Virus record (IMG/VR): IMGVR_UViG_3300042514_001345
Reading direction: 5' to 3' (one strand)
DNA length: 64,000 nucleotides
DNA from: a virus
Taxonomy: Duplodnaviria; Heunggongvirae; Uroviricota; Caudoviricetes
Part shown: positions 7,389-61,843 of the stretch, piece by piece
Layout: the number at the start of each line of letters is the position of its first letter
Position numbering within the stretch: the first letter of the stretch is position 1
Made by a program: the position numbers and the translations under genes
The notes under the pieces: model-generated
What the model was told of the DNA's origin: nothing
The model's database searches: none
The model's input: the letters and a program-made list of their open reading frames with translations, nothing else

Positions 7389-8357
7389 CTATGTGTTGTT
7401 TGCGTATCCTAAAGGAAAACCATTTCTAAATTCAGATGTCATTCTTGGTATGAGGACTTGATATGTTTTCATCAATTCAACAATACCGTCATCTAAACCA
7501 TAATTAGGTTTCCATCCAATAGATTCTATTTTATTGTTTGATACAATATAATCTCGTTTATCCGGATCTTCGTAAAAATCAGAATATGATATGGCAAAGT
7601 CAGGAATGTATTGTTTTATCTTGGTTAAAAGTTCTTCCTTATTTAAATTGGCATCACTTAAACCAACATTATACACATTATTTTTCATTGTGTCATAGTT
7701 CTCAATGGCGAATGTAAAAACGTTTGCAACGTCTTGTATGTGTATGAAATTACGTTTAAAATGTTTTTCAAAAACGACAATATACTTGTCTGTCATCGCT
7801 TTATAAACAAACTCATTAACTAATAAATCGGTTCTCATTCTTGGGGAACTACCAAATACTGTCGCCAATCTAAAACAAACTGCGGATGTACTAAACATCA
7901 ATAAATTTTCAGCAGCACATTTACTTTCACCATAAACAGATATCGGTTTTAATGGGGATTCTTCAGTACATTCAGTTTGATTCTCACCAATACCATATCC
8001 ACTATTTGTGTTCGGATAGAGGATTAGTTGATTTTTAGACAGATGAGGTACTATATTTTTTACTTGTTCAAAATTAACATCCCAAGATAGTTTAGGATCG
8101 GCTTTACATGCTGGAAATCCAACAATGGCGGCTAAAGGAATAATCACATCGTGTGTTTTAACCAGCTTTTCTAATAAACTTTCATTACGCACGTCACCAT
8201 AAATAAAATTATATTTTGGGTTATAAGTGAATTGTAGCGGGGATATTTGTTTGAACATTAGGTTATCTAGTACGGTAACTTGATGACCTAAATCTAGCAT
8301 GTTTTTAGTGATGACGGAACCAAGATAACCAGCACCACCTGTTATAAGAATTTTCAT
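7389..8357 (-). CDS. NAD-dependent epimerase/dehydratase (extended SDR)
   Basis: MKILITGGAGYLGS Rossmann motif with a YGESK (YxxxK) catalytic dyad. Length is 322 aa. Confidence 0.7.
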   Translation of the reverse strand: MKILITGGAGYLGSVITKNMLDLGHQVTVLDNLMFKQISPLQFTYNPKYNFIYGDVRNESLLEKLVKTHDVIIPLAAIVGFPACKADPKLSWDVNFEQVKNIVPHLSKNQLILYPNTNSGYGIGENQTECTEESPLKPISVYGESKCAAENLLMFSTSAVCFRLATVFGSSPRMRTDLLVNEFVYKAMTDKYIVVFEKHFKRNFIHIQDVANVFTFAIENYDTMKNNVYNVGLSDANLNKEELLTKIKQYIPDFAISYSDFYEDPDKRDYIVSNNKIESIGWKPNYGLDDGIVELMKTYQVLIPRMTSEFRNGFPLGYANNT

Positions 8358-8398: not shown

Positions 8399-8731
8399 TT
8401 AGTTAATATTTGCAAAATAATCGTGCAGATTTTTAATTTCAGCACATTTCTCATAGTCCTCATTATCTTCGTAATATGGTAATATTTGCTTAATTAAAAT
8501 TTCGTAATCCAACTTCTTAAAACTAAATTCGGTATCCCATGACAACACACCCATATCCGTTGACACCAATAAGGTTAAAACACGTTTTCTGGAATTGTTT
8601 TTAAATTCGGTGTAAATGTCTAAAACACCGCGATAAATTCCGTCTCGATTTGTGTTATACAAATCCTTAAAATCGTTGTACATTCTTTTTTCAATCTCAA
8701 CAACGATGAATGGTTCTTTTTTTCTAGTCAT
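8399..8731 (-). CDS. hypothetical protein
   Basis: 110-aa ORF. Confidence 0.35.
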   Translation of the reverse strand: MTRKKEPFIVVEIEKRMYNDFKDLYNTNRDGIYRGVLDIYTEFKNNSRKRVLTLLVSTDMGVLSWDTEFSFKKLDYEILIKQILPYYEDNEDYEKCAEIKNLHDYFANIN

Positions 8732-9932
8732 TTTTAAAAGGTTTTGAGTGTGATGGGTATATTGAGTTCCAGATCATTTCGTTTAATTGATTTGAGTATG
8801 AATCTAATCTTTTAAAAAGAAATGACCTATTGGGGTTGTCTTTTATTTTTTCAGCAAATTCTTTTTTATCTATCAACTCTTTAAATTGATTTTCCACATC
8901 GGTTTTAATGGTGTCAAATTGATTTTGTAAATCTAGAATTGTGGTTTTAACCCAATTGTTAAATTCATCTGGGACTTTTTCAAGTAGTTCATCAAACGGT
9001 CTGTTATCTTTCAAATATTCCCAAATATCTCTATTTGATATGTTGGTTAAAATCCTATGAAGTCGTACATATTCGTCGCCTTTGATTTTCATTCGAAAAC
9101 CATTTTTAAAACGAATTACATATCCTTCTCTATCTTTCGATATTTCTTCTTTTAACAAGTCATACGATTCCCCCCATGTTTTGTATGTCATAACAACTTC
9201 AAATCCAGAATCTTGCGTCCAAAACAAACTACTATCGGGTATTTCTTCACCTGTTTCTGTATGGATACCACCGAGAACAACTAATTTTTCTTCACCTTTA
9301 TAATCAACAACAATTCTATTTTCGGGATAGATAATTTCAAACAAATATGTATTGTCTTTTCTCCATGCGCTGATGTCATGCCTATCAAGAATTTCTTTTC
9401 CTTTAATTGCTTGTGGTGAGGTAAATGATCCGCGAGTTGCTAATATCCACTCACCCTTTCTTTTTGGTGTTGGTTCGTAATATGGGTTATCGAAATCAGG
9501 TAAGTCATTCGGGTTAAAGAATTTTTCCATACCCGTTTCATAATTGTTATTAAACCAAATATTGTATCTTCTTTCATCCGTTAATTCTTCTTCATAATAA
9601 AAAAGAATACCTAAAGATCCATCCATCTTTTCATAAACAACATAATCTTCATTTGGTATGTCTTCAGGTTTATGTTCTTCGTAATTAAAAAATTTCTTAA
9701 ATGGTCTAGCGATTATCTCACCTTTTGAGTTGGTGACTAACCCGCGACATTGTATTGTAATATCATCCCATAACCTATCATATTGAACCTTTGGAGTATA
9801 ATTCCAAATGAACAAATCATATTTTGGGTGTTTTTGCTTTGAAAGCAAACCATTTTGAAAGTATGTCTCTAATTTTTCTAACACTAAGTTTTTTTGTTTT
9901 GGGGTTAACTGCTTTTGTAAACGATACAACAA
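8724..9932 (-). CDS. RNA ligase (T4 Rnl1-like)
   Basis: YEKMDGSLGILFY contains the nucleotidyltransferase motif I, KxDGSL, as in T4 RnlA (KEDGSL). Size is 402 aa, and a Pnk-like kinase gene lies adjacent. Confidence 0.6.
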   Translation of the reverse strand: MLYRLQKQLTPKQKNLVLEKLETYFQNGLLSKQKHPKYDLFIWNYTPKVQYDRLWDDITIQCRGLVTNSKGEIIARPFKKFFNYEEHKPEDIPNEDYVVYEKMDGSLGILFYYEEELTDERRYNIWFNNNYETGMEKFFNPNDLPDFDNPYYEPTPKRKGEWILATRGSFTSPQAIKGKEILDRHDISAWRKDNTYLFEIIYPENRIVVDYKGEEKLVVLGGIHTETGEEIPDSSLFWTQDSGFEVVMTYKTWGESYDLLKEEISKDREGYVIRFKNGFRMKIKGDEYVRLHRILTNISNRDIWEYLKDNRPFDELLEKVPDEFNNWVKTTILDLQNQFDTIKTDVENQFKELIDKKEFAEKIKDNPNRSFLFKRLDSYSNQLNEMIWNSIYPSHSKPFKND

Positions 9933-12235: not shown

Positions 12236-13033
12236 ATGGAAAATCTGGTAAATATCGAGCGTCTAAGTGATTTATTATCAATACCTTCGGTAACATATGA
12301 CGAATGGGACATGGTTGAGTACCTATCAGAGTATTTTGATAAAAAGGGTTATGAGTATGGTGTGGATTCATATGGTAACATTTTTGTTACCAAGGGGACC
12401 GATGTAATAAAACCGTTGATTTGTGCTCACATAGACACCGTCCATAAAAAAACAAAAATCAACATAAAAGAAGAATGGTTACCTAGATTAAGTTGTTATG
12501 GTCAAGTATACCCATACGATGAAAACGTTTTATGTTTAAAGGGTTATGATGATAATGGTGAAGAAACTGGTTGTGGTGGTGATGATAAGTGTGGTGTATA
12601 TGTTTGTTTAGAAATATTGGATCGTGTTGATAATATCAAACTAGCGTTCTTTGTTTCAGAAGAAACAGGTTGTATTGGTTCTAGTAATTGTGAACCAGAG
12701 TTTTTTGAAAATACAAAGTTCGTATTATCCTACGATGCTCCCGGAAATCAATTGGTTACCGAAATTTGTAACGGTGTTAGAATATTTGATAGGGAAAGTG
12801 ATTTCTTTAAAGTTGTTTCAAAAACATTTGAGGAGATTGATTATAAACCATTATATGGTAGTCATCCCTACACAGACATTTATATGATGAAAAAACGATT
12901 TGATATTGATGGGGTAAATTTATCTTGTGGATATTATAATATGCACAGAAAATCAGAATATGTCTGTGTCGACGACGTTGCTAAAGCCATCGACACAGGG
13001 CTTAAATTACTCACTAACCTTTCCAACAACTAA
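12236..13033 (+). CDS. M20/M42-family metallopeptidase-like protein
   Basis: CAHIDTV (HxD), GYDDNGEE..GGDDKCG (DDK) and FVSEETGCIGS (EE) are arranged like the M20 metal-binding motifs. Confidence 0.5.
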   Translation: MENLVNIERLSDLLSIPSVTYDEWDMVEYLSEYFDKKGYEYGVDSYGNIFVTKGTDVIKPLICAHIDTVHKKTKINIKEEWLPRLSCYGQVYPYDENVLCLKGYDDNGEETGCGGDDKCGVYVCLEILDRVDNIKLAFFVSEETGCIGSSNCEPEFFENTKFVLSYDAPGNQLVTEICNGVRIFDRESDFFKVVSKTFEEIDYKPLYGSHPYTDIYMMKKRFDIDGVNLSCGYYNMHRKSEYVCVDDVAKAIDTGLKLLTNLSNN

Positions 13034-15037
13034 TTTAAGAATTAGTTTATCTTCTTTGAATATTATTTTGTAATTTTTATTCTCTTTAATGGTGCCTTTT
13101 AATATTTCATCACTAAGGAAATCTTCACATAGTGATTGAATTATTCTTTTGATTGGTCTAGCACCATATTCTTGTTGTTTATTTCTGTTGAAAATTTCAT
13201 CAATAACAGTTGAATCAAATTTAATTGAATAACTTTTCTCAATTAATCTTTTTGTCAACTTTTCCATTTCTAATGTAATAATTGATTTAAGTGCTGTTTC
13301 ATCTAACGGATTAAATAAAACAATATCATCAATTCTATTTAGGAATTCTGGGTTAAATTGTTGTTTCAATGATTTTTGAATCATAGTTCTTTTAACCTCA
13401 TATGATTGTTGTTCGCTAGATGCTGTAGAGAATCCAATTCCTGCACCAAATTCGGAAACTCTTTTAGCCCCAATATTTGAGGTCATAATAATCAACGTGT
13501 TGGTAAAATTTATTTTTCTACCAAAAGAATCTGTAACGTGTCCTTCATCCAATATTTGAAGTAAAATGTTAAACACATCTTTGTGTGCTTTTTCAATTTC
13601 ATCAAATAGAATCACCGAGAATGGATTGTTTTTAACCTTTTCAGTTAATTGCCCACCCTCATCATAACCAACATATCCTGGAGGCGCACCAACTAATCTT
13701 GATACTGTGTGTTTTTCCATAAACTCACTCATATCAATTCTAATAACATTGTCCGCTGAACCAAATATTAATTCAGCCAAAGTTTTGGCTAGATATGTTT
13801 TACCCACACCAGTTGATCCCATAAAAATGAATGAACCAATAGGTTTTTGTGTTTCTTTAATCCCAACACGATTTCTTCTAATGGCTTTGGATATACTAGC
13901 TAGAGCTTCTGATTGACCAATAACTTTTTCACCTAATCTTTTTTCAAGGTTAATTAAATTTTCAGTTTCTTTGCGGTCTAATCTAGTAATTGGAACACCG
14001 GCCATTGATGTGATCATTTCATAAACATCATCAATACTAATCGGTATTTTATTATTTTTTTCGTTGTCTGCCCATATTGCTTTTTCGCTATTTAAACGAT
14101 TAATAACTTTTCTTTCTTCATCTCTTAGTTTTGCGGCTTGCTCATAATTTTGAGTACGAACAACTTCGAGTTTTTTTTCTTTAATAACTTCGGCATCCTT
14201 TTTTAATTTCTCAATAATTTCTGGAACCTCAATTACTACTCTTTTTTCCGAACCTAATTCATCTAGAACGTCAATTGCTTTGTCTGGGAATTGTCTATCT
14301 GTCATATAACGACCAGCAAGTTTGACCGCAATTTCAATCACACCTTCACCATAAGAAACTCTGTGATAGTCCTCATATGATTGCTTTAGATTTTTTAAAA
14401 TCTCTATTGTTTCCGTTTCTGTTGGTTCTTTTAATATGATTTTCTGGAATCTTCTAACCAAAGCACCATCCTTTTCAATGTGTTTTTTAAACTCATCAAA
14501 AGTTGTGGCACCAATACATTGAATTTCACCTCTAGCTAATGCTGGCTTTAAGATATTTGCAGCATCCATTGCTCCAGAAGCGTTACCAGCACCAACCATT
14601 GTATGTAATTCATCTATGAAAAGAATTACGTTGGGGTTTTCGGCTAATTCGTGTATAATAGCTTTAATCCTTTCTTCAAATTGACCTCGATATTTTGTAC
14701 CAGCAACTAATGAAGTTAAATCTAAGGAAACCAGTCGTTTATCCAATAAATTGGTTGGACAATTACCTTTAACAATCATTAACGCTAATTTCTCAACAAG
14801 TGCAGATTTTCCAACACCCGCATCACCAACAATGACCGCGTTGTTTTTTTTCTTTCTCGAAAGAATTTGTGCAATTCTTTTTACTTCCTTGTCTCTACCA
14901 ACGACCGGATCTATTTTATTATCCTCGGCTAGTTTGTTTAGATCCCTTGAAAAATTATCAAGAATTGGCGTTGTGGAGGAACTTTTTCTGTTCCTAGGGT
15001 TGGTTTTTGGACCGTCTTCAAAAAAATCTACTGACAT
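13007..15037 (-). CDS. ClpA/ClpC-like two-domain AAA+ unfoldase without an N-domain
   Basis: Two Walker A motifs (GDAGVGKSA, GSTGVGKTY), a UVR-like linker between D1 and D2, and an IGF tripeptide (GAGIGFSTASS) after sensor-1 of D2. Confidence 0.85.
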   Translation of the reverse strand: MSVDFFEDGPKTNPRNRKSSSTTPILDNFSRDLNKLAEDNKIDPVVGRDKEVKRIAQILSRKKKNNAVIVGDAGVGKSALVEKLALMIVKGNCPTNLLDKRLVSLDLTSLVAGTKYRGQFEERIKAIIHELAENPNVILFIDELHTMVGAGNASGAMDAANILKPALARGEIQCIGATTFDEFKKHIEKDGALVRRFQKIILKEPTETETIEILKNLKQSYEDYHRVSYGEGVIEIAVKLAGRYMTDRQFPDKAIDVLDELGSEKRVVIEVPEIIEKLKKDAEVIKEKKLEVVRTQNYEQAAKLRDEERKVINRLNSEKAIWADNEKNNKIPISIDDVYEMITSMAGVPITRLDRKETENLINLEKRLGEKVIGQSEALASISKAIRRNRVGIKETQKPIGSFIFMGSTGVGKTYLAKTLAELIFGSADNVIRIDMSEFMEKHTVSRLVGAPPGYVGYDEGGQLTEKVKNNPFSVILFDEIEKAHKDVFNILLQILDEGHVTDSFGRKINFTNTLIIMTSNIGAKRVSEFGAGIGFSTASSEQQSYEVKRTMIQKSLKQQFNPEFLNRIDDIVLFNPLDETALKSIITLEMEKLTKRLIEKSYSIKFDSTVIDEIFNRNKQQEYGARPIKRIIQSLCEDFLSDEILKGTIKENKNYKIIFKEDKLILKLVVGKVSE

Positions 15038-15194: not shown

Positions 15195-15440
15195 ATGGCT
15201 ATAATTTCAGAAAGAATTGAAGGTAAAATCATCACTGTTGACATTAATTCAACAAATATAAAATCCGCAAGTTATGATACCGAAAGTCAGGTATTAATAG
15301 TTAATTTTAATAATGGAGGTATTTATGAATACCAAAGCGTTCCTTGGGAATTGTTTGCGAAATTTCGTATGTCAGATTCTCAGGGGAAGTATCTTAACCA
15401 GCATGTTAAGGGGAAATATTCACATACTAAAATTAAATGA
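15195..15440 (+). CDS. KTSC-domain protein
   Basis: The pattern V.S.....SYD.....L.V.F..GG.YEY..VP...F..F fits the KTSC domain. Confidence 0.6.
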   Translation: MAIISERIEGKIITVDINSTNIKSASYDTESQVLIVNFNNGGIYEYQSVPWELFAKFRMSDSQGKYLNQHVKGKYSHTKIK

Positions 15441-20061: not shown

Positions 20062-20087
20062 AAAAAGGTGGTTATCCACCTTTTTTT
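20062..20087 (+). terminator. rho-independent terminator
   Basis: Stem AGGTGG / CCACCT with loop TTAT, followed by T7. Confidence 0.6.
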
Positions 20088-20088
20088 G

Positions 20089-20096
20089 TATTTATA
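20089..20096 (+). promoter_or_regulatory. TATTTATA upstream motif
   Basis: 3 nt upstream of the terminase ATG and just after the terminator. Confidence 0.4.
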
Positions 20097-20099
20097 CAT

Positions 20100-21878
20100 A
20101 TGAATAATAAATTAGAACAATTAAAAGAATATGCTAAAATTATTAAAGATGCTCCGTATGCTTTAAAAACATACTTAACAACTTATGATAATACGCAAAA
20201 GAAATATGTTCCTCTAGAATTATTTCCTGACCAAATTCAATTAATACAGGATTACGAAACATACAACGAAAACATTACAAGAAAGTATAGACAGGCGGGT
20301 GTTACAACAGTAACCGCTGCGTGGATTTCAAAAAAATTACAGACAGCAAAAGAAAGTGAACCTGAAAGAGTTCTTCTTATTGCGAACAAAAGAGACACCG
20401 CGGTAGAAATGGCTAATAAAGTTAGACACTTTATTGAGCAATGGCCGGATTGGATAAATGTGGGATTTTCACCCGATAAGAACTCAGAAAGTAGATTTAG
20501 ATTAAACAATGGTTGTGAGGTTAAGGCGGTAGCTACATCTGCGGATGCGTTACGTGGATATACCCCAACCATACTTGTATTTGATGAGGCAGCATATATT
20601 GAAGCAGGTGACGATTTTTGGGCGGCATCTATGGCGTCCCTATCAACAGGTGGTAAGATTATTCTTATCTCCACACCAAATGGTTATGACCCCATCTATT
20701 ATGGTGTTTATGACCAAGCATTACGTGGAATTAATGATTTCCATATAACGGATTTAAGATGGTTTAAAGACCCGCGTTACACTAGAGACCTATGTTGGGT
20801 AAAATGTCCTGATATATGCCATTACATGTTAAATAGGGAGCAATATAACGACGATGAAGTTGTTTTACATGACTTTGATATTGAAAAATATCAAGAACTC
20901 GTTGAACAAGGATATAAACCATTTTCATCTTGGTTTGAATCTATGTCTAAGAAATTTAAATATGATAGACGTAAGATTGCGCAGGAATTAGAATGTGACT
21001 TCTTAGGTTCAGGAGATGGTGTTATTTCGGGAGATGTTCAAGAGAATATTGCAAAAAATATGATTAAAGTACCTAAAGAAAAATACATGCAAGGTACTTT
21101 TTGGATATGGAATGAACCAGTACAAGGTCATAGATATATTATGGGCGTGGACGTTAGTAGAGGTGATAGTGATGACTATTCAGCTATTAGCATTATTGAC
21201 TTTGATGAAAGGGAACAAGTTGCTGAATATGTTGGTAAAATGCCACCAGATGATTTAGCGGCAGTTGCATATAAATGGGGTATATTATACGAAGCGTTTA
21301 TAGTTGTCGATATTACTGGTGGTATGGGCGTGGCTACATCAAGAAAATTACAGGAATTAAATTATAAGAGTTTATTCATTGACGGAGTTAACACAATGAA
21401 TCCATGGGAATATAATAAAAAAGCCATGGAAAAAATACCGGGAATAAACTTCAATAATAAAAGAACCCAGATTGTAGCCGCATTTGAGGAGCAATTAAGG
21501 AAAGGTTTTGCTATCAGGTCAAATAGATTATTAAACGAATTAAACACCTTTGTGTATATTAATGGTAGACCAGACCACATGAAGGGCGCTCACGATGATG
21601 CTATTATGAGCATGAGTATCGCATTATATGCTGGGGATATATGTTTCACACAACTTAAACGAAATGAACAGCAATCAAAAGCTATGGTTGATTCTTGGAT
21701 GATTGCGGAAAGAACATATGAAACTGGTAAGAATTTTTATTCATATGGAACATCCCTAGATGCAATCGGTTCAATGCAAATGGATGGTTCACAATATAAT
21801 AATACACAATCACAACCTGCAAAACAACAATACCAAGAATATGGCTGGTTATTTGGGGCTAATAAAAAGCATTTATAA
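20100..21878 (+). CDS. terminase large subunit (T4 gp17-like)
   Basis: 592 aa with a Walker B-like ILVFDEAAYI. It lies immediately upstream of the portal gene. Confidence 0.85.
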   Translation: MNNKLEQLKEYAKIIKDAPYALKTYLTTYDNTQKKYVPLELFPDQIQLIQDYETYNENITRKYRQAGVTTVTAAWISKKLQTAKESEPERVLLIANKRDTAVEMANKVRHFIEQWPDWINVGFSPDKNSESRFRLNNGCEVKAVATSADALRGYTPTILVFDEAAYIEAGDDFWAASMASLSTGGKIILISTPNGYDPIYYGVYDQALRGINDFHITDLRWFKDPRYTRDLCWVKCPDICHYMLNREQYNDDEVVLHDFDIEKYQELVEQGYKPFSSWFESMSKKFKYDRRKIAQELECDFLGSGDGVISGDVQENIAKNMIKVPKEKYMQGTFWIWNEPVQGHRYIMGVDVSRGDSDDYSAISIIDFDEREQVAEYVGKMPPDDLAAVAYKWGILYEAFIVVDITGGMGVATSRKLQELNYKSLFIDGVNTMNPWEYNKKAMEKIPGINFNNKRTQIVAAFEEQLRKGFAIRSNRLLNELNTFVYINGRPDHMKGAHDDAIMSMSIALYAGDICFTQLKRNEQQSKAMVDSWMIAERTYETGKNFYSYGTSLDAIGSMQMDGSQYNNTQSQPAKQQYQEYGWLFGANKKHL

Positions 21879-21913: not shown

Positions 21914-21921
21914 TATTTATA
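21914..21921 (+). promoter_or_regulatory. TATTTATA upstream motif
   Basis: 5 nt upstream of the portal ATG, in the context gTATTTATAtag. Confidence 0.4.
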
Positions 21922-21926
21922 TAGAT

Positions 21927-23738
21927 ATGGCAGACCAAAATTTAACAATATTTCAAAGATTAACCAAAATCTTTGGCTATCAGGGACAAACACCACAACC
22001 GCCATCGTTTAATTTTTCTAAGGAAGAACTCCTTACGACTAGTGACCCGATGGAATATGAGCGTGAAAGATTGAAACTACAACAAAGCCAATATCTTTTT
22101 GATAAATGGGCTAAGGTTGATAATTCAATGTACAATCAATCGGTTTATTATGAGCCAAATAGAATAGCTGCATATTATGATTTTGAATCAATGGAGTTTA
22201 CACCAGAGGTATCAGCAGCATTAGACATTTATGCTGAGGAATCAACTACAATGTCTGAAAAAGGATTTATTTTAAACGTTTATTCAGAATCAAAAAGAGT
22301 TAAGAACATTTTAATTGATTTGTTTGAAAACAAATTAGATATCAACACAAATTTACAAATGTGGGCTAGAGGTATGTGTAAGTACGGTGATGATTTTGTT
22401 TATTTAAAAGTTGATCCAGAAAAAGGAATTATCGGTTGTCAACAATTGCCAAATATTGAAATAGAAAGAGTTGAAGGTTCTTTAGGTTTAACACCATCAC
22501 AAAGAGATAGCAAATTACCGACTAAAGAATTAATGTTTAGATGGAAAAATCGTGACATGGAATTCCAAGCATGGGAAATTGCTCACTTTAGAATTTTAGG
22601 TGATGATAGAAAACTACCTTATGGGACATCTATGTTGGATAAAATTAGAAGAATCTGGAAACAATTATTACTTGCGGAAGATGCTATGTTAATTTATAGA
22701 ACATCTAGAGCCCCTGAAAGAAGGGTATTCAAGGTGTTCGTTGGTAATATGGACGACAAAGATATTGAACCATATGTACAACGTGTTGCTAATAAATTCA
22801 AGAGAGACCAATCAGTAGATGCTAGAAACGGTCAAGTGGATATGAGATATAATCAAATGGCTGTTGACCAAGATTATTTCATACCAGTACGTGACCCAGC
22901 AGCACCAAACCCAATTGATACACTACCTGGAGCACAGAATTTAGGTGAGATAGCGGATATTGAATATATTCAAAAGAAATTATTAGCGGCTCTTAGAATA
23001 CCTAAAGCGTTTTTAGGTTTTGAAGAAGTTGTTGGTGATGGTAAGAATCTTGCATTAATGGATATTCGTTTTGCAAGAACTATTAATAGAATTCAAAAAT
23101 CATTAATTCAAGAATTAAACAAGGTTGCGTTAATTCATCTATACATGTTAGGTTTAGAAGATGAATTAAATAACTTTACATTAGGTTTATCAAATCCATC
23201 TGCACAATCAGATTTATTACGTATTGAACAATGGAAAGAAAAAGTCACACTTTACAAAGATGCGACATCTGATCAATCTCAAGTTGGTATTTTACCAGTT
23301 TCACATACATGGGCTAAGAAAAATATTCTTGGATTTAGTGACAATGAAGTTCTTCTTGATTTACAACAACAACGTCTTGAAAGAGCGATGGGCTTTGAAT
23401 TAACAAACACACAGACCGTAATTAAACGTTCTGGAATATTTGATGAGGTTGATGCTAAGTACGGTATCTCAGAAGATGAAAGGCAAGCAGCAGAGGCGGC
23501 TACCGCCGCTGAAGGTGGTGGTGAAGCGCCTGAATTGGGCGGAGCAATGGGTGCACCACCTGCACCATCAGGACCGCCATCAGGTGGTGGTGAGGAACCT
23601 TTAAGTGAAGGTAAAAAAGCTAAACTTATCTCATCTTTAGGCGGTGGAGATAAATTAGAAGATTTATTTAATATGGAAAAGGCACAAAGGAATATTTATG
23701 AAATGGAGAATAAATTAAAAGATATTTTAAACGATTAA
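21927..23738 (+). CDS. portal protein (gp20-like)
   Basis: 603 aa. Position in the order terminase, portal, protease, scaffold, capsid protein supports the call. Confidence 0.7.
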   Translation: MADQNLTIFQRLTKIFGYQGQTPQPPSFNFSKEELLTTSDPMEYERERLKLQQSQYLFDKWAKVDNSMYNQSVYYEPNRIAAYYDFESMEFTPEVSAALDIYAEESTTMSEKGFILNVYSESKRVKNILIDLFENKLDINTNLQMWARGMCKYGDDFVYLKVDPEKGIIGCQQLPNIEIERVEGSLGLTPSQRDSKLPTKELMFRWKNRDMEFQAWEIAHFRILGDDRKLPYGTSMLDKIRRIWKQLLLAEDAMLIYRTSRAPERRVFKVFVGNMDDKDIEPYVQRVANKFKRDQSVDARNGQVDMRYNQMAVDQDYFIPVRDPAAPNPIDTLPGAQNLGEIADIEYIQKKLLAALRIPKAFLGFEEVVGDGKNLALMDIRFARTINRIQKSLIQELNKVALIHLYMLGLEDELNNFTLGLSNPSAQSDLLRIEQWKEKVTLYKDATSDQSQVGILPVSHTWAKKNILGFSDNEVLLDLQQQRLERAMGFELTNTQTVIKRSGIFDEVDAKYGISEDERQAAEAATAAEGGGEAPELGGAMGAPPAPSGPPSGGGEEPLSEGKKAKLISSLGGGDKLEDLFNMEKAQRNIYEMENKLKDILND

Positions 23739-23740
23739 AA

Positions 23741-24487
23741 ATGAACAACTTTGGAAAAATAAAGTCGAAGTTATTGAAAAAATTAACTGAGGCGTACACA
23801 GATAAAACTTTTAAACAAAATACAAAAAACTTGTTTAAGGTGATTAAGAAGAATAGAGATTTCAAAGAAATGTATCTATTTTATGAAGAAATAGAGAACA
23901 AGTATTTTGAGGATAAAGAAACCGCTAAACTTTATGTTGAACAACTTGGTCAATTATTAAAGGAAAAGGCAACGAAAATTAATAGCTTTTGTCAAGTTAT
24001 CAACATGTCGGTTCATGACACGCAAATAGATGAAAACAAACTTTACGATTCAATTGATCAGTTATTAGAAGATGATAACTTAAATAATATTGATAAGAAA
24101 GTTATGGCTAAAAAGAAGTTGGTAGAACATTTAACAACAAAAAAAGAAAATATTGAGAAAACAACCGAAACTTACACAGTAAATGAAAATTTATTACATG
24201 CTGTTTTGGCAAACAATTTTAACGTTCTTTATAATAACACATTAAATGAAGAGCAAAAAGAAACCTTAAAAACAATTATATCACTTTCTGATGAAGATTT
24301 AAAAACAAAGGTTAACGAATTAAAAGAAAGTTTAACCACTAAAGTAGATACCCTCTTAAGTGAAGCAAAATCTAACGACGCAACATTTGCAACAAAATTA
24401 ACGGATGTTAAAAAAGAAATGGACGAAATGGTCCCGACGAAATTTAACTACTATCGTTTAAAACAATTAGAAAATGGTCTGGATTAA
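23741..24487 (+). CDS. K/E-rich coiled-coil protein (prohead core gp67/68-like?)
   Basis: Position between portal and prohead protease, matching T4. Confidence 0.35.
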   Translation: MNNFGKIKSKLLKKLTEAYTDKTFKQNTKNLFKVIKKNRDFKEMYLFYEEIENKYFEDKETAKLYVEQLGQLLKEKATKINSFCQVINMSVHDTQIDENKLYDSIDQLLEDDNLNNIDKKVMAKKKLVEHLTTKKENIEKTTETYTVNENLLHAVLANNFNVLYNNTLNEEQKETLKTIISLSDEDLKTKVNELKESLTTKVDTLLSEAKSNDATFATKLTDVKKEMDEMVPTKFNYYRLKQLENGLD

Positions 24488-24504
24488 TCTAGACCATTTT
24501 TTTT
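24475..24504. terminator. bidirectional terminator hairpin
   Basis: Stem TGGTCTGGA / TCTAGACCA with loop TTAA and a T8 run, lying between convergent genes. Confidence 0.55.
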
Positions 24505-24675
24505 CTGTTGAAGGTATATCGCTTTCAATACTTCCTTCCTTCTACTTACTGAAGGTTTAACAAATTCTTGTCTTTCTCTTAATTTTTGTATTTGCTTGGT
24601 CTTTTGAACCTTACTTTTATACGTTCTAAGAGCAGATTCGAGATTTCTTTCCTTACTTAAATCAATTATAATCAT
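24484..24675 (-). CDS. rpsU: ribosomal protein bS21
   Basis: MIIIDLSKERNLESALRTYKSKVQKTKQIQKLRERQEFVKPSVSRRKE follows the S21 pattern (M.vI.V...E....ALRrFKr.......l.E.RrR..yeKPs..Rkr). Confidence 0.7.
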   Translation of the reverse strand: MIIIDLSKERNLESALRTYKSKVQKTKQIQKLRERQEFVKPSVSRRKEVLKAIYLQQKKNGLD

Positions 24676-24779
24676 ATATAAATAAATATATCACAAAATT
24701 ACCGTTTTTTTGGAATTTCAAAAAAAATTAGTTAAATTAGTTACTAACACCATAAAATGACAATAACATGAAAAGATAA

Positions 24780-25208
24780 ATGAAATTTGGTAAGTATATT
24801 CAGTTAGGCGAATATGAAAAAATTAAAATTGGCTACGGAACTGTTGACTTTAGAACATTAAAAACAGTATACATAAAATTAAACGCTTGGGTTAAACCAA
24901 CAAATGAATCTGACGATTTCGATAGAACTATATTAAGAAGTAGAAAGAAAATTAAAGATACAATTAGAGAATTTAATTTAAATAACTTTTTTAAGACAGA
25001 AAGTATTGTAGATTTAGACATTAGAACCAAGGGAATTAAATTGGATAAGAAATCATTCATGAACCTTGAAATCACATTATACGCTGAAAAACAATTTGAC
25101 ATAAAGAACAAAGAGGTTACTTTTATGCTCGAAAATCTAGTAAAAAAACTAGTTGACAATTGTTTAATCGATAAAACCTTATTTAATTTTAGTAAAACCA
25201 AGTTTTGA
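24780..25208 (+). CDS. hypothetical protein
   Basis: 142-aa ORF within the head module. Confidence 0.4.
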   Translation: MKFGKYIQLGEYEKIKIGYGTVDFRTLKTVYIKLNAWVKPTNESDDFDRTILRSRKKIKDTIREFNLNNFFKTESIVDLDIRTKGIKLDKKSFMNLEITLYAEKQFDIKNKEVTFMLENLVKKLVDNCLIDKTLFNFSKTKF

Positions 25209-25222: not shown

Positions 25223-25230
25223 TATTTATA
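25223..25230 (+). promoter_or_regulatory. TATTTATA upstream motif
   Basis: 17 nt upstream of the gp21-like protease ATG. Confidence 0.4.
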
Positions 25231-25247: not shown

Positions 25248-25931
25248 ATGAAGATATTAGGTCCAAACGAAATAGGTAAGGGAATTTTAATAGAATACGA
25301 CGCTGGACACATTTCTCCTAGTGAAAACAGAGCAGTGTTAAAAGAAATGGAGAATAAAGATACCAATCAGGACTTTATTCTCTATGCCGTTTTACAAAAA
25401 TACGATACACCAAACAAGAACGGTAGAATATACCCACAGGCACTCTTAAAAAGAGAAAACGAAAAATATCAACAAGCTATTAATAGCGGTTCGGCATTAA
25501 ACGAACTAAATCACCCATCATCATCACTTATTGACTTAGACAGGGTATCCCACAGTATTTTAGAAACTTGGTGGGATAGTAAAATCCTTATGGGTAAAAT
25601 TAAACTATTCACATCTCCGGGTTGGAAAAAGATGGGTATTGTGTCAACTAAAGGTGACCAAGCAGCTATGCTTTTATTAAATGGAGCAACTCTAGGTATA
25701 TCATCTAGAGGGGTTGGTTCATTAAAGAATGAAAGAGGTCAAAACATTGTTCAAGATGACTTTGAATTAGTATGTTTCGACTTAGTTTCATCACCATCAA
25801 CACCAGGCGCATACATCTTCCAAGATTTATCTGATAAAGACAAATATCAAGAATCTGTTGAAGAAAAGCCAATTGTTGATGATAGAATGAAAAAACTAAT
25901 GGGAAACCTTAATAGTTTTTTAAGTAAATAA
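25248..25931 (+). CDS. prohead core protease (T4 gp21-like)
   Basis: NKNGRIYPQALL, ALNELNHPSSS, ILETWWDSKILMGKIKL and GISSRGVGSL align with T4 gp21 NRNKRLYPKRIL, ALGELNHPPRA, IEDMWWKGNDVYGRARV and GVSSRGLGSL. Confidence 0.85.
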   Translation: MKILGPNEIGKGILIEYDAGHISPSENRAVLKEMENKDTNQDFILYAVLQKYDTPNKNGRIYPQALLKRENEKYQQAINSGSALNELNHPSSSLIDLDRVSHSILETWWDSKILMGKIKLFTSPGWKKMGIVSTKGDQAAMLLLNGATLGISSRGVGSLKNERGQNIVQDDFELVCFDLVSSPSTPGAYIFQDLSDKDKYQESVEEKPIVDDRMKKLMGNLNSFLSK

Positions 25932-25984: not shown

Positions 25985-25992
25985 TATTTATA
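25985..25992 (+). promoter_or_regulatory. TATTTATA upstream motif
   Basis: 20 nt upstream of the scaffold ATG, in the context cTATTTATAtag. Confidence 0.4.
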
Positions 25993-26012: not shown

Positions 26013-27179
26013 ATGACTGAAAAATCAATTTTAGAACAAGCGTTACTTCAAGTGCAAACACTTGAGGAAGCAGTAAAGCAAAATGCAAAAGGTATCCTTG
26101 CGTCAACAATGAAACAAGAACTAAACGATTTGCTTAAAGAATCTATGGAAGATGAGGAGATCAAGTTAACTGCTGAACAAGCAGATGATGAAGACGCTCC
26201 TGAAGATGAAGAAGATGTTACCGACCCAGAAGCAGATGCTGAAGGTGAGGGAGATGACGAATTACCAGCAATAAACGATGAACCATCTAAAGACATTGAT
26301 GGTGAAGATTTATCTGATCCTGATGATGAAGAAGGATTTGGTGATGAATTACCAGCAATCGATGACGAGATGCCAACTGATGACAATGACATGTTAGACA
26401 TGACTGGTGCTTCTGATGAAGAAGTATTAAAAGTGTTTAAAGCAATGTCTGACGAAGATGGTATTATTGTTAAAAAAGATGGTGACAACATTAGTTTAGA
26501 AGATGGTGAAGATGAATATATCATCAAATTAAACGAAGAAGATGAATCTGAAGAAGAATTTTCTGAAGGTTATAACGAAGAAGAAGACGCGCCAATGGCG
26601 GGTGACGAAGAATTAGGTGAAGAAGAAGAAACTGTTTATGAAATCGAATTAGACGGTGAAAACGATGACGAAGAAGTTATGTCAACATCAAAAGAAGTTG
26701 AAGCGACTGAATCTGCTCGTAACATCGGACACGGTTATCATAGTGGAATTAAAAGTAAAAAATTACATTTCGCTGGTAACAAAAGAGAAGCAGTAAACGA
26801 AGAAGTTACAACGTTAAAAAAGCAAAATGCTGAATATAAAAAGGCGTTATTACTATTTAAAGATAAACTTAACGAGGTTGCTGTATTCAATGCAAATTTA
26901 GCTTACGCTACAAGATTGTTTACTGAGCACTCAACAACAAAAACTGAGAAGTTGGATATTTTGAAAAGATTTGACACAATTTCTACTATAAATGAATCAA
27001 AAAATCTTTACAATTCAATCAAAACTGAACTTGGATCTAAAAAATCTGTAACTGAGTCAGTTGTTGAAAAAATTGCATCAACACCTTCAACATCTTCAAC
27101 TGAAGTACTTTCTGAATCAAAAGTTTACGAAGCACCTCAATTTGCAAGAATGAAAGATTTGATGAAAAAATTAAAATAA
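26013..27179 (+). CDS. acidic scaffold protein (gp22-like)
   Basis: D/E-rich coiled-coil protein lying between the protease and capsid genes. Confidence 0.5.
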   Translation: MTEKSILEQALLQVQTLEEAVKQNAKGILASTMKQELNDLLKESMEDEEIKLTAEQADDEDAPEDEEDVTDPEADAEGEGDDELPAINDEPSKDIDGEDLSDPDDEEGFGDELPAIDDEMPTDDNDMLDMTGASDEEVLKVFKAMSDEDGIIVKKDGDNISLEDGEDEYIIKLNEEDESEEEFSEGYNEEEDAPMAGDEELGEEEETVYEIELDGENDDEEVMSTSKEVEATESARNIGHGYHSGIKSKKLHFAGNKREAVNEEVTTLKKQNAEYKKALLLFKDKLNEVAVFNANLAYATRLFTEHSTTKTEKLDILKRFDTISTINESKNLYNSIKTELGSKKSVTESVVEKIASTPSTSSTEVLSESKVYEAPQFARMKDLMKKLK

Positions 27180-27211: not shown

Positions 27212-28939
27212 ATGGGAGCATTATTAGAATCAGGTATGGTTGGTAACATTGGATTAAAACATTTACGTGTTATCAAAGAAGATACTATTAGAAAATGGGA
27301 TGACTTAGGTTTCTTAGAAAACCTTGACGGTCACCAAAAAGATAACATCGCGCAATTGTATGAAAACCAAGCGTCTTATTTAATCAACGAAGCAGCAGTT
27401 TCTGATGCTTCAGGTTCTTTCGAGACAGTGGTATTCCCTATTATTCGTCGTGTGTTCTCTAAATTATTAGCGAATGACATCGTTTCAGTTCAAGCTATGA
27501 ACTTACCAATTGGTAAATTATTCTTCTTTATCCCTAAGATACAAGAAAGAAACGCAGCAAACGGACATTATTCTCCATACGGTATCCCAGGTGGTGCAGG
27601 TGGAGCTAGCGCAAGCACAGGTTACACAGGTACAAACCTTTACGATCGTTTCTACGAAGCGAATGATGAAGCTACTAGCGGTTTATTTGACTATTCAAAA
27701 GGTCAATTCTCTGGAGTAACTTTAGCAGGTGCATCTTATGTAACTTTCTCTGCTGGACAAGTAACTGAAGTAGCTAACTCAGCAATGACTGGTACTTCTA
27801 AGAGTGATGTAATCATCAAATTTAGTGGTTTCACTAAAACAGCTCAAGGTAAATTAATCGGACCAAACGGTTCTGTAATGGACACTGAAGATTTCTTAGC
27901 ATCAGCTACAGTATCTTTCTCTGGTGAATCTAAAAATTTCAACGTTGTAACTCAACAATACGGTAAAGGTATCGTTGCTTACGGTCAAAAAAGTACAACA
28001 TCAGGATATCCTAGTGGTGGATACCAAGACATTTGCGACGAAGAAGGTGTAATCTATGTAAAAGTAGACGTACAAACTTATTCAGCAACTGCTGGTTTCA
28101 GCGCTGTAACTTTAGCTTCTGACGCGTTAGCATCTGCTTTCGTATTAAACTTCAGAGTTTATGATTCATTAGAATTCGAAGAAGAAATCGGTGAGGTTTC
28201 TTTCGATCTTTCTTCTGTAACAGTTTCTGTAACTGAAAGAAAATTAAGAGCAACTTGGTCTCCAGAATTAGCTCAAGACGTTAGTGCGTTCCACAACATC
28301 GATGCTGAAGCTGAATTAACTGCTTTATTATCTGAGCAAATCGCTGCTGAGGTTGACCGTGAAATCTTACGTGATTTACGTAAAGGTGCTGCTTGGTCTC
28401 TTAAGTGGGATTACAATGAGTGGAAGTACGGTGGTTCATCAGGAGCAACTTTACAAGGTTACACTCAAAAGGATTGGAACCAAACGTTAATCACAAAGAT
28501 TAACCAATTATCGGCTCAAATCCATAAAACAACTTTACGTGGTGGTGCAAACTGGATTGTAGTTTCTTCAGAAGTTTCTGCTGTATTCGATGATTTAGAA
28601 TATTTCCACGTATCAAACGCTCATCCAGAGCAAGACCAATACAACATGGGTATTGAAAAAGTAGGTACTTTAGCTGGCCGTTACCAAGTGTATCGTGACC
28701 CTTACTTCCCTGCTGACAAAATCTTGATTGGTCACAAAGGTAAGTCATTATTGGATGCTGGTTATATCTACGCACCATATGTGCCTTTACAATTAACTCC
28801 AACAATGTATAATCCTTTCAACATGACACCTATCAAAGGTATCATGACAAGATACGCAAAGAAAATGGTTAACAACCGTTACTATGGTGTAATCTCTGTA
28901 AAAGGTATCCAAACATTTGACATGGGAACTTTAAGATAG
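27212..28939 (+). CDS. major capsid protein (T4 gp23-like, HK97 fold)
   Basis: RRVFSKLLANDIVSVQAMNLPIGKLFFF aligns with gp23 RRAIPNLIAFDICGVQPMNSPTGQVFAL. ELAQDVSAFHNIDAEAELTALLSEQIAAEVDREI aligns with ELAQDLRAVHGMDADAELSGILATEIMLEINREV. GRYQVYRDPYF...GHKGKSLLDAGYIYAPYVPL aligns with GKYRVYIDQY...GYKGPNEMDAGIYYAPYVAL. Confidence 0.92.
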   Translation: MGALLESGMVGNIGLKHLRVIKEDTIRKWDDLGFLENLDGHQKDNIAQLYENQASYLINEAAVSDASGSFETVVFPIIRRVFSKLLANDIVSVQAMNLPIGKLFFFIPKIQERNAANGHYSPYGIPGGAGGASASTGYTGTNLYDRFYEANDEATSGLFDYSKGQFSGVTLAGASYVTFSAGQVTEVANSAMTGTSKSDVIIKFSGFTKTAQGKLIGPNGSVMDTEDFLASATVSFSGESKNFNVVTQQYGKGIVAYGQKSTTSGYPSGGYQDICDEEGVIYVKVDVQTYSATAGFSAVTLASDALASAFVLNFRVYDSLEFEEEIGEVSFDLSSVTVSVTERKLRATWSPELAQDVSAFHNIDAEAELTALLSEQIAAEVDREILRDLRKGAAWSLKWDYNEWKYGGSSGATLQGYTQKDWNQTLITKINQLSAQIHKTTLRGGANWIVVSSEVSAVFDDLEYFHVSNAHPEQDQYNMGIEKVGTLAGRYQVYRDPYFPADKILIGHKGKSLLDAGYIYAPYVPLQLTPTMYNPFNMTPIKGIMTRYAKKMVNNRYYGVISVKGIQTFDMGTLR

Positions 28940-28963
28940 TATTCTTAATGTAGTATATAAAAG

Positions 28964-28990
28964 CCCTCGTAGAAATACGGGGGTTTTTTA
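28964..28990 (+). terminator. rho-independent terminator after the capsid gene
   Basis: Stem CCCTCGTA / TACGGGGG with loop GAAA, followed by T6. Confidence 0.65.
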
Positions 28991-29018
28991 TTTTATAGAA
29001 ATTACGTATATTTGACTT

Positions 29019-29333
29019 ATGTCAGAAGTTGATTACAGCAAATTAAGATTGGATGTCCTTGAAAAAATGATTTACACAAGAAGTATTGAGTGTAAAATGA
29101 AAAAGGACGAAATGATTAAAATGTTAAAATTAGATGATGAGGGTAAGTATGAACCCCCTATGAATAATACCACATATGAGAAATGTGATGGTGGCTTTAA
29201 TGTTGGTATTGATATCCGAAGCCATTCTGATTTAGTGCAAATAGGTAAATTAGTGGAAAAGAAAGATGCTAAATGTTTAAATAGATATTCAGATAATAGG
29301 TTGTGGTATTGGTCAAAACAAAAATTAATTTAA
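29019..29333 (+). CDS. hypothetical protein
   Basis: 104-aa ORF. Confidence 0.35.
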   Translation: MSEVDYSKLRLDVLEKMIYTRSIECKMKKDEMIKMLKLDDEGKYEPPMNNTTYEKCDGGFNVGIDIRSHSDLVQIGKLVEKKDAKCLNRYSDNRLWYWSKQKLI

Positions 29334-30204: not shown

Positions 30205-30483
30205 TTATTTAATTTTATCTACCTCATTAACAAATTTATGGCACTTATCGGTTATCTTACCCTTTTCGTGGTCTGTGATGGATAACTTTACATTATCATA
30301 ATGAACCGTCATATCTGGGTGATGATTCTGTTTGTCAGCAATTTTCATAACCTCATTCGCAAATGACATCACCTCTTTATAATTTTTAAAATAAAATGTC
30401 TTAGCTAGTTTACCACTTACTTCCTTCCAATTACTACTATTCATAATTTTATTTTTTTGATTTTCGGTTATAACGATTTTCAT
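30205..30483 (-). CDS. pterin-4-alpha-carbinolamine dehydratase (PCD/DCoH)
   Basis: FKNYKEVMSFANEVMKIADKQNHHPDMTVHYDNVKLSITDHEKGKIT matches the PCD signature (E..HHP, L.THD). Length is 92 aa. Confidence 0.75.
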   Translation of the reverse strand: MKIVITENQKNKIMNSSNWKEVSGKLAKTFYFKNYKEVMSFANEVMKIADKQNHHPDMTVHYDNVKLSITDHEKGKITDKCHKFVNEVDKIK

Positions 30484-30484: not shown

Positions 30485-31246
30485 TTATAATTTGGTATCT
30501 TTTATAAATTTTTTATGTGAATTTTTATATGATTTTAATGATTCGTCATTTATATCTTTAGTATATTGCCAATTCCAATATAAATCGTCATTTATTTTAA
30601 AACCATAAAATTCATGGATTTTCTTTTGTAAATCATTCACATTTACACCGTTAAAATTCTGTCCAGTACATATAAATCCAGTTTCAATATCTTTAACTAA
30701 ATTGGATTCACCTAACGCCGTGTGTCTGTTTTCTATCCAAGTTAAACGTTCAATTAGATTTTGATAAAACATATTTGTTTGTCCCCATCTAACGGAACTT
30801 AGAAATACAACCGCATCTGACTCAAATAGTTCTTTACTTATTTTCCAAAGTTCATCTTTGGGGTTGTTTATACTAGCCCAACATCTATGGTGACCGGTTG
30901 GATTTTTATCTTTATCCTTAAGTTTTGATTTTAATAAACCACAACTATTACCGTCTTTTCTTGATACATTACCCTCACAAGGAACTATGTTTAATTCTGA
31001 AACGTCTATCAATGTTGATTTATCACCCAATTCATCATTAAGATACATCGCAATCATTTTAGATTTTGGTATATCAATATCGTTTTTATCCCAATTATGT
31101 CTATTAGAACAACTTAATAATAAAACTTTTTTCTTCTTTTTAAGAACGTCCAATGTTTTCTCTATAGATTTCCAAGCATCAGATTGTACCATCTCCTCAG
31201 AAATCATCATTTGTCTAATCCTATGTATGTTCTCTTGTAAGTTCAT
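30485..31246 (-). CDS. flavodoxin-like NAD(P)H-dependent FMN reductase family protein
   Basis: KKVLLLSCSNR and AVVFLSSVRWGQTNMFYQNLIERL resemble the FMN_red fold. Confidence 0.4.
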   Translation of the reverse strand: MNLQENIHRIRQMMISEEMVQSDAWKSIEKTLDVLKKKKKVLLLSCSNRHNWDKNDIDIPKSKMIAMYLNDELGDKSTLIDVSELNIVPCEGNVSRKDGNSCGLLKSKLKDKDKNPTGHHRCWASINNPKDELWKISKELFESDAVVFLSSVRWGQTNMFYQNLIERLTWIENRHTALGESNLVKDIETGFICTGQNFNGVNVNDLQKKIHEFYGFKINDDLYWNWQYTKDINDESLKSYKNSHKKFIKDTKL

Positions 31247-31705
31247 CTATTTACATTTTTTCCAACCACCACCTTTTGCTTTATAGTTTTTGGCAGCCCA
31301 ACCATTAGCGTATGCTGAAGGATAAACGTCAAATTTTCTTTTAGCCGCCGCCTTAGACGCCGACCATTTTGCTGGGTCGGTGGGGCAGTTTTTACTTTCG
31401 TCTATTTCACCATTTTCAGATAAATCTTTTTCTGATTCGGTTAGGTTTTTTTGTTCCATATAACTTTCTATGAAATTTGCAACTTCTTCAATATCATCTT
31501 TCGATGTTGTGATGTGATCACCGGCCCATGCGTGTTCTCCCGTAACTAATTTTGGGAAATCGGGGTGGTGTTTAAATGATAAGATTATTTCAATATCGTT
31601 CTTTATTTGAGTTAAATTACTCAATACCATATATGTACCAGTTTCTGAAATATGCTCTTCTTGAGCTTCTTTGATACATTTTTTAATAAGTTCGTTGATG
31701 TTCAT
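31247..31705 (-). CDS. hypothetical protein, paralog A, with a shared 22-aa N-terminal leader
   Basis: MNINELIKKCIKEAQEEHISETG matches the start of the 31726..32139 ORF. Confidence 0.45.
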   Translation of the reverse strand: MNINELIKKCIKEAQEEHISETGTYMVLSNLTQIKNDIEIILSFKHHPDFPKLVTGEHAWAGDHITTSKDDIEEVANFIESYMEQKNLTESEKDLSENGEIDESKNCPTDPAKWSASKAAAKRKFDVYPSAYANGWAAKNYKAKGGGWKKCK

Positions 31706-31708: not shown

Positions 31709-31716
31709 TATAAATA
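31709..31716 (-). promoter_or_regulatory. TATTTATA upstream motif (minus strand)
   Basis: 3 nt upstream of the start of paralog A (31705). Confidence 0.35.
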
Positions 31717-44504: not shown

Positions 44505-44512
44505 TATAAATA
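44505..44512 (-). promoter_or_regulatory. TATTTATA upstream motif (minus strand)
   Basis: 5 nt upstream of the gene start at 44499. Confidence 0.35.
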
Positions 44513-47490: not shown

Positions 47491-47498
47491 TATTTATA
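47491..47498 (+). promoter_or_regulatory. TATTTATA upstream motif
   Basis: 5 nt upstream of the ATG at 47504, the first fiber-module gene. Confidence 0.4.
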
Positions 47499-61835: not shown

Positions 61836-61843
61836 TATTTATA
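61836..61843 (+). promoter_or_regulatory. TATTTATA upstream motif
   Basis: 4 nt upstream of the ATG at 61848. Confidence 0.4.

Follow-up and report, generated by a model that had tools for sequence, protein, structure and literature searches.

Identification of a bS21 gene in the head module

We analysed a 64,000-nucleotide stretch of viral DNA from IMG/VR record IMGVR_UViG_3300042514_001345 (Caudoviricetes), hereafter called the window, in which a short reverse-strand gene is located inside a T4-type head gene module (Table 1). Judging from the profile and structure-guided comparisons below, this gene almost certainly encodes a Bacteroidota-type phage homologue of the small-subunit ribosomal protein bS21. 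The original prediction, made from the nucleotide sequence without database searches, had proposed both this identity and the lone opposite-strand placement among head genes, and both proposals held. The list of open reading frames (ORFs) contained exactly this ORF, with an ATG start codon and 63 codons, which is within the range of small basic bS21 proteins (approximately 55-71 aa), and it is the sole minus-strand gene among those called between positions 15195 and 29333.

All three profile resources recognised the protein. It matched Pfam PF01165 (Ribosomal_S21) with 44.3 bits (E-value 1.4e-11, profile positions 5-52 out of 55; gathering cut-off 27 bits) and the NCBI S21p equivalog model TIGR00030 with 32.6 bits (cut-off 28.95 bits), so both curated cut-offs were passed, and phrog_21469, "ribosomal protein S21", was hit with an E-value of 7e-6. 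A search against all solved structures gave the best matches to the proteins from Porphyromonas gingivalis (9i5v, E-value 1.1e-11) and Flavobacterium johnsoniae (7jil, E-value 3.6e-11). Residues 1-58 and 1-62 align without gaps to 9i5v_9 and 7jil_z, respectively, and 19 columns are invariant between the phage proteins and these two Bacteroidota structures. Structures of bS21 from Firmicutes scored weaker, with E-values around 1e-5.

The bS21 gene and its antisense arrangement in the head block are already published. Chen et al. 2022 (ISME Commun 2:31, PMC9723584) described 47 freshwater phage genomes carrying bS21, eight of them complete, with sizes of 293-331 kb and GC content of 31.0-33.7 %. 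The protein in these phages was characterised by a conserved Tyr54 and a divergent N-terminal part, and in metatranscriptomes bS21 was among the most highly transcribed genes together with the structural genes.

Table 1. Features of the bS21 locus and the surrounding head block. Distances are to the start codon; the last column gives the number of related loci with the upstream box and its distance to the ATG.
Feature	Position	Strand	Basis and remarks	Box in relatives
bS21 coding sequence, 63 aa with Tyr54, monocistronic	24484-24675	minus	ORF, PF01165 and TIGR00030, structure alignments, dN/dS	
AT-rich box directly upstream of bS21 ATG	24677-24688	minus	TATTTATA at 24677-24684, gap 1; overlapping TATTTATT at 24681-24688, gap 5	
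Candidate host-type promoter TAATTTTG	24694-24701	minus	match to Bacteroidota sigma-A -7 consensus TAnnTTTG, 18 nt upstream of bS21 ATG	
Palindromic hairpin resembling an intrinsic terminator (A-tract, stem, T-tract)	24469-24502	both	holds both stop codons	
Bidirectional terminator-like hairpin	20062-20085	both	between the 437-aa gene and TerL, abuts the TerL box	
Large terminase (TerL)	20100-21878	plus	family matches; TATTTATA at 20089-20096, 3 nt from ATG	45/45; 3-6 nt, directly after terminator T-run
T4 gp20-type portal	21927-23738	plus	family matches; TATTTATA at 21914-21921, 5 nt from ATG	64/65; 3-5 nt
Convergent 248-aa gene (fam498 / "bS21_CN" of Chen et al.)	23741-24487	plus	4-nt overlap with bS21; C-terminus ...NGLD	
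Divergent 142-aa gene (fam656 position)	24780-25208	plus	104-nt intergenic gap to bS21	
Prohead core protease, gp21 type	25248-25931	plus	family matches; TATTTATA at 25223-25230, 17 nt from ATG	78/78; approximately 16-17 nt
Acidic 388-aa protein, scaffold position	26013-27179	plus	ORF; TATTTATA at 25985-25992, 20 nt from ATG	72/72; 18-27 nt
gp23-type major capsid protein (MCP)	27212-28939	plus	family matches; terminator at 28959-28988 follows	
Strong terminator-like hairpin	28959-28988		after the MCP gene	

Conservation and comparison with cellular bS21

We recovered 624 relatives of the window bS21 in the protein collection and 308 matching IMG/VR stretches. Sixty-six contigs, the longest of 287 kb, carry a protein identical to that of the window, and a relative with 90 % identity sits on a contig of 324 kb. 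The neighbours, their order and their orientation were alike on three contigs bearing the identical protein. The 50 distinct coding sequences compared from related loci all have 63 codons, and their median dN/dS is 0.107 at a dS of about 1.0, where the synonymous divergence is near saturation. Tyr54 is invariant in the window and in the 43-50 distinct phage sequences compared, and position 55 is hydrophobic (L, V or I) in every one of them. The bS21 gene is under purifying selection and maintained.

An ORF this short, the sole one on the reverse strand in the block, might be suspected to be a spurious antisense ORF or a decaying or neutral passenger gene. The matches to two curated profiles, the low dN/dS, the fixed length and the invariant Tyr54 together exclude a spurious or decaying ORF, and hundreds of contigs keep bS21 at the same place; we therefore regard this explanation as refuted.

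The Bacteroidota type of bS21 described by Jha et al. 2021 (PMC7797042) has Tyr54 stacking on A1534 of the 16S rRNA, Ile55 and a weakly basic C-terminal domain. The two cellular Bacteroidota proteins of solved structure (7JIL and 9I5V) have the same length as the phage bS21 and share 42-45 % identity with it in a gapless alignment, and the other cellular Bacteroidota proteins, obtained by a scan of one genome per species, reach 41-56 %. The KPSV motif, Tyr54 and the hydrophobic residue 55 are common to the phage and cellular proteins, and the phage tail (...KKNGLD) is nearer to that of Flavobacterium (...MKDGLES) than to the acidic tails of Bacteroidales. The cellular genes differ from the phage copy by encoding a less basic C-terminus, by the strong Shine-Dalgarno (SD) sequence of Flavobacterium rpsU and by not being located in a virus head module. 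No phage-type bS21 was found among the cellular genomes (one genome per species, best identity 56 %) with search patterns that were partly derived from Bacteroidota. The scan returned Bacteroidota only, but as its patterns are biased to that phylum, this has little weight for the host assignment.

A palindromic hairpin shared by two convergent genes

The original prediction included a strong bidirectional terminator hairpin at the 3' end of bS21, at positions 24475-24504. A hairpin of 15 pairs is indeed present there, slightly wider than proposed, but it is strong only on the plus strand and weaker in the direction of bS21. On both strands the stem contains G+C and leads into a U-tract. The plus-strand RNA folds with -20.8 kcal/mol (z -5.9) and is followed by a U8 tail, whereas the minus-strand RNA, which has one A.C mismatch and ends in a U4CU tail, reaches -13.8 kcal/mol (z -3.9).

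The same nucleotides encode the last residues, N-G-L-D, of both bS21 and the 248-aa protein. The same palindrome closes the convergent ORF in 82 of 84 loci, where the two genes overlap by 4 or 8 nt and both proteins have NGL[DNSV] as their C-terminus. In most relatives the palindrome is perfectly symmetric, 13-16 bp long and flanked by A and T tracts. Support from covariation is modest: two of the 12 consensus pairs display compensatory double changes (U-A to C-G and U-A to A-U) and the rest are invariant, as might be expected because both arms must encode NGL on both strands, a constraint that could suffice alone. The hairpin thus appears to be a bidirectional terminator dual-coded with the two C-termini, with termination predicted from its form.

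This close arrangement raises an alternative in which the protein acts off the ribosome, or the convergent transcript itself is the active agent, and in which the overlapping 248-aa gene or the portal operon is controlled by antisense RNA, transcriptional interference or RNA binding. Besides the gene overlap and the single palindrome shared by the two genes, such a role would be consistent with the matching expression, the similar phylogenies and the absence of the partner gene from S21-less outgroups reported for the bS21 phages (PMC9723584). However, the strong purifying selection, with the KPSV motif and Tyr54 kept, argues for the canonical binding site, and the hairpin should end both transcripts before extensive antisense RNA could arise. 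We consider this alternative very unlikely.

Upstream boxes and promoter candidates

Many genes had been noticed in the original prediction to carry the octamer TATTTATA 3-5 nt from their ATG, which is correct in substance. The octamer occurs 19 times in the window versus 15 expected copies, so it is not over-represented. Thirteen of the 19 are sense-strand copies at most 45 nt upstream of gene starts, where 0.41 would be expected under uniform distribution, and in seven of these the gap to the ATG is 1-5 nt. Of the 72 genes, 13 are preceded by a sense-strand (G)TATTTATA box; apart from the copies in Table 1, the sites include 31709-31716, 44505-44512, 47491-47498 and 61836-61843. Outside the head block, the genes with the box are PhoH (41032-41766, minus strand, box 34 nt upstream), a head-tail-adaptor-like protein and others without assigned function.

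In the related loci, the box is kept while the flanking sequence drifts. Of 81 relatives, 72 have a box-like element upstream of bS21, in most cases at a distance of 4-5 nt from its ATG; the values for the other head genes are given in Table 1. No box was found in these loci before the MCP gene, the 248-aa gene, the 142-aa gene and the gene upstream of TerL. The boxes and the three hairpins split the plus-strand part of the block into a box followed by TerL, a box followed by the portal and 248-aa genes and a terminator, a box followed by the protease, and a box followed by the scaffold-position and MCP genes and a terminator. These deduced units agree with the co-transcription patterns in Chen et al. 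(PMC9723584), who reported that MCP is co-transcribed with its upstream gene in the bS21 phages; in the window, the scaffold-position gene and MCP are probably co-transcribed as well.

From its position and conservation, we read the box as probably a promoter-type element of this phage group. As bS21 shares it with TerL, portal, protease and scaffold, the gene is probably switched on together with them. The label "late promoter" is not established, because the genes with the box outside the head block include PhoH.

Two other readings of the box were rejected. A ribosome-binding signal does not agree with distances to the ATG ranging from 3 to 34 nt, with the absence of the box before MCP and internal genes, and with its location directly after terminators. 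A T4-type late promoter (TATAAATA) was discarded since TATAAATA occurs on the sense strand upstream of one gene only and the box TATTTATA is its reverse complement.

Promoters of Bacteroidota contain a -7 box, TAnnTTTG, at -12 to -5 (PMC9723704, PMC7366714). The box TATTTATA departs from this sigma-A consensus at positions 6 and 8. A TAnnTTTG element, represented in the window by TAATTTTG, is located 17-19 nt upstream of the bS21 ATG in 54 of 81 relatives. Scans of the window for sigma-70 promoters gave fewer matches than shuffled sequences and are uninformative for a Bacteroidota-type system, and a literature search for TATTTATA gave no relevant paper.

Absence of Shine-Dalgarno sequences and of the rpsU feedback signal

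The original prediction had argued that a box so close to the ATG leaves little or no room for an SD sequence. The spacing is as described, but it does not explain the absence of SD sequences, since this absence is genome-wide: SD-like GGAG, GAGG or AGGA at -20 to -4 are present in 5 of 72 genes, compared with 3.7 expected by chance. The upstream regions are A-rich, most of all at -3, -2 and -10 to -14. The phage genome does not use SD sequences, which fits a Bacteroidota host.

In Bacteroidota, ribosomes do not use SD sequences because bS21, bS18 and bS6 sequester the anti-SD (PMC7797042; PMC9976891). Ribosomes of F. johnsoniae without bS21 initiate better on rpsU, which has a strong SD, and worse on SD-less mRNAs, and the host rpsU is autoregulated through SD pairing below -13 kcal/mol (McNutt et al. 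2023, PMC9976891). We calculated the duplex between the leader and the anti-SD for the bS21 gene of the window and obtained -5.1 kcal/mol; among 80 relatives the minimum was -6.5 and the median -1.4 kcal/mol. The rpsU leaders of five Flavobacterium loci gave approximately -21 kcal/mol. The phage bS21 gene is outside the Bacteroidota rpsU autoregulation scheme.

The sole strong complement to the anti-SD in the window is GGUGGUGG at approximately 31265-31276 on the minus strand (-14.8 kcal/mol), before gene 30485-31246. It consists of glycine codons that end the upstream gene and is at least 17 nt from the next ATG, so as an SD sequence it is probably coincidental.

Relationship to other phages and the likely host

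The window appears to belong to the bS21-phage group of Chen et al. 2022. In clades a-e of this group, the bS21 gene is reversed and flanked by two hypothetical genes within the block of TerL, portal, prohead protease and MCP, as in the window. The supplement of that paper gives the gene order fam656 - fam334 (bS21) - fam498 - portal (PMC9723584), from which we identify "bS21_CN" (fam498) with the convergent 248-aa gene. The accessory genes listed for the group include Clp, PhoH and sugar-modifying genes (PMC9723584), and the window shares with it a Clp-type ATPase, a peptidase, PhoH, an epimerase, a glycosyltransferase, a DNA polymerase and a helicase. The GC content is 0.27-0.36 per 2 kb over the window and 0.29-0.35 for the head region. 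When 9 kb around bS21 were compared with deposited phage genomes by megablast, no match was obtained, and the published genomes of the group are seemingly outside that collection.

As the gene and its context have already been published, the value of our analysis is confirmation and a sharper, testable picture. Chen et al. 2022 (PMC9723584) use none of the words promoter, terminator, motif and leaderless in their main text, and therefore the layer of cis-elements, i.e. the shared palindromic terminator, the conserved box and the missing SD, is what is added here. The additions are modest details: the transcription unit with its terminator, a shared control box that perhaps explains the co-expression with head genes, the lack of the autoregulatory SD and a possible link to leaderless mRNAs (see below).

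Hosts of the published bS21 phages were predicted to be Bacteroidetes (PMC9723584). The phage of the window most likely infects Bacteroidota as well, as suggested by the affinity of its bS21, the lack of SD use, the TAnnTTTG elements and an MCP nearest to that of a Flavobacterium phage. The latter, the cultured vB_FspM_immuto (vB_FspM_immuto_3-5A, MW353176, region 118876-136456), has a related gp23-type MCP with approximately 40 % identity and the same order of TerL, portal, protease and MCP. Its genome is 160 kb, and it has neither bS21 nor any reverse-strand gene in the head module. The same TATTTATA box precedes TerL, portal, PhoH and other genes of immuto at 11-23 nt from their starts, compared with 3-5 nt for TerL and portal of the window.

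Among deposited phage records, the closest bS21 proteins (41-50 % identity) belong to the huge phages of Al-Shayeb et al. 2020 (LR756501-504 and LR745206), whose genomes of 635-735 kb have no similarity to the window at the nucleotide level. Pelagibacter phage HTVC008M and other marine phages encode a bS21 too, but the HTVC008M protein is distant and was absent from the tblastn matches at E-value <= 1e-3. Its host is from another phylum, whereas sequestration of the anti-SD has been described for Bacteroidota. The HTVC008M protein is reported to enter ribosomes of E. coli in vivo (Mizuno et al. 2019, as cited in PMC9976891).

Proposed role of the phage bS21

Few observations suggest as clearly as virus-encoded ribosomal proteins that phages remodel the ribosome itself and not just its inputs, and bS21 is the commonest of these proteins. 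In Bacteroidota, bS21 is a switch for the reading of SD sequences by the ribosome. A phage copy that is co-expressed with the head genes and escapes the host feedback could therefore plausibly serve to take over the ribosomes, in a phage-host pair of ecological importance in lakes.

The explanation that we consider probable is that the gene is a functional bS21 which forms its own transcription unit and acts in the host 30S subunit. This unit of approximately 200 nt would consist of the box and the host-type -7 element, the 63-codon ORF and the palindromic terminator shared with the portal-side operon. On what the protein does there we are somewhat less confident, but on balance we favour that the phage bS21 enters the 30S late in infection, keeps the anti-SD sequestered and so favours the SD-less phage mRNAs. 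The protein would bind to the 30S platform at the bS21 site, where Tyr54 would keep the 3' tail of the 16S rRNA, i.e. the anti-SD, sequestered. Ribosomes would thereby be held in, or pushed to, a state that initiates well on SD-less mRNAs, which are all mRNAs of the phage. By filling the bS21-free ribosomes, the phage protein would also turn down the translation of the host rpsU, and its own synthesis should escape the feedback loop of the host because its gene has no strong SD.

Several observations weigh against this picture. The methods of the published RNA mapping do not mention strand specificity, and the neighbour with the expression most similar to bS21 is the convergent, overlapping gene (PMC9723584); with strand-blind mapping, part of the signal assigned to bS21 could thus come from antisense read-through. 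Position and conservation are the grounds for calling the box a promoter, and some genes that carry it, PhoH and others, are not obviously late. The host assignment draws on sequence affinity and a single CRISPR spacer of Chen et al., and our genome scan was biased to Bacteroidota. Finally, the protein differs from cellular Bacteroidota bS21 in two respects. The domain following KPS has a pI of 10.17 in the window and a median of 10.45 (net charge +5) in the phage proteins, while the median of 72 distinct cellular Bacteroidota sequences is 9.52 (net charge +2). The phage value is intermediate between these and the 11.89 of E. coli bS21. The second difference is in the N-terminal half, where ten positions (5, 8, 9, 17-19, 23, 24, 27 and 31) carry fixed phage-specific residues that differ consistently from the cellular Bacteroidota consensus. 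With this more basic tail and the ten substitutions, the phage bS21 may act on the ribosome differently from that of the host.

These differences fit the specialised-ribosome model of Chen et al., in which the phage bS21 replaces that of the host and its divergent N-terminal helix, located over the mRNA path near the anti-SD, makes the ribosomes actively prefer late phage mRNAs to those of the host. The role suggested in the original prediction, a bias of ribosomes toward phage mRNAs, is the same published hypothesis. The substitutions cluster in that half while the C-terminal anchor with Tyr54 is kept, a residue pattern that was seen also by Chen et al. (PMC9723584), and a more basic tail could help to outcompete the host protein. 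The paralogs of bS21 in Francisella tularensis, which are reported to alter which mRNAs the ribosome translates, provide a precedent for mRNA selectivity (PMC9578407, PMC13374519). The analogy is in the way of working; those genes are chromosomal and belong to a gammaproteobacterium, not to a virus. What speaks against such selectivity is that we found no phage-specific feature in the initiation regions that the protein could read. They are A-rich and SD-less like the mRNAs of the host, the box stands at varying distances, and many highly expressed genes, MCP among them, lack it. We thus see the model as possible, but clearly less probable than a bS21 that maintains the sequestration of the anti-SD.

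Chen et al. also raised, in their discussion (PMC9723584), the idea that bS21 is made late so that the virion can carry it: packed in the capsid, it would enter the next cell along with the DNA and act on the ribosomes from the beginning of that infection. The gene lies inside the head-assembly module and is apparently co-regulated with head genes, and in its small size and strongly basic character the protein resembles internal head proteins. However, it has no feature for prohead targeting and no protease site, its end-to-end match to cellular bS21 leaves no extra domain, and the few copies that could be packaged would hardly affect thousands of ribosomes. We find this delivery by the virion improbable, and prefer bS21 synthesised and acting late within the same infection.

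A possible connection to leaderless mRNAs

A more far-reaching variant, which we put forward only as a speculation with rather low probability, is that the box is a phage version of the Bacteroidota -7 element, that key late mRNAs are leaderless, and that the phage bS21 keeps or retunes the sequestration of the anti-SD for them while its own SD-less gene evades and shuts down the rpsU feedback of the host. In F. psychrophilum, where the -7 box is at -12 to -5, leaderless mRNAs make up 5.5 %, and in B. thetaiotaomicron 3.7 % of 5' UTRs are below 10 nt (PMC9723704, PMC7366714). Between the box and the ATG there are most often 4 nt in bS21 and portal and 3 nt in TerL; with the geometry of the host promoters, a box 4 nt from the ATG would place the transcription start on the A of the ATG, and gaps of 3-5 nt would place it there or 1-2 nt away. 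Two genes have the host-type element TATATTTG exactly 4 nt from the ATG, namely 29019-29333 on the plus strand (element at 29007-29014) and 40386-40994 on the minus strand, and by the same geometry leaderless mRNAs are predicted for them. In front of the first one, which encodes 104 aa, TATATTTG is kept in relatives.

Ribosomes of E. coli favour the leaderless mRNA of lambda cI if they lack bS21 and the anti-SD leaves the exit path; in Bacteroidota it is bS21 that moves the anti-SD away. The phage bS21 and leaderless late mRNAs may conceivably be linked. In the S21-less immuto the box is 16-17 nt from the ATGs of TerL and portal, which hints that leaderless late genes and phage bS21 go together.

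Other genes in the window

Searches in PHROG and Pfam gave no match for the two neighbours of bS21, the 248-aa gene (23741-24487) and the 142-aa gene (24780-25208). Antisense to the acidic scaffold-position gene there is a serine-rich ORF of 159 aa (26048-26527, minus strand), which is almost certainly no gene but a consequence of the GAx-rich (Asp/Glu) codons on the coding strand. A scan of the window for tRNAs found none.

Upstream of the head block, a gene of a peptidase family (12236-13033, plus strand) converges with a gene for a 676-aa Clp-type AAA ATPase (13007-15037, minus strand; phrog_4871, E-value 6e-233), and this pair represents proteostasis genes that are listed for the published bS21 phages as well. 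Further auxiliary genes on the minus strand encode a nucleotide-sugar epimerase (7389-8357), an RNA-ligase-like protein (8724-9932), a protein of the pterin-4a-carbinolamine dehydratase family (30205-30483) and a glycosyltransferase (42668-43885).

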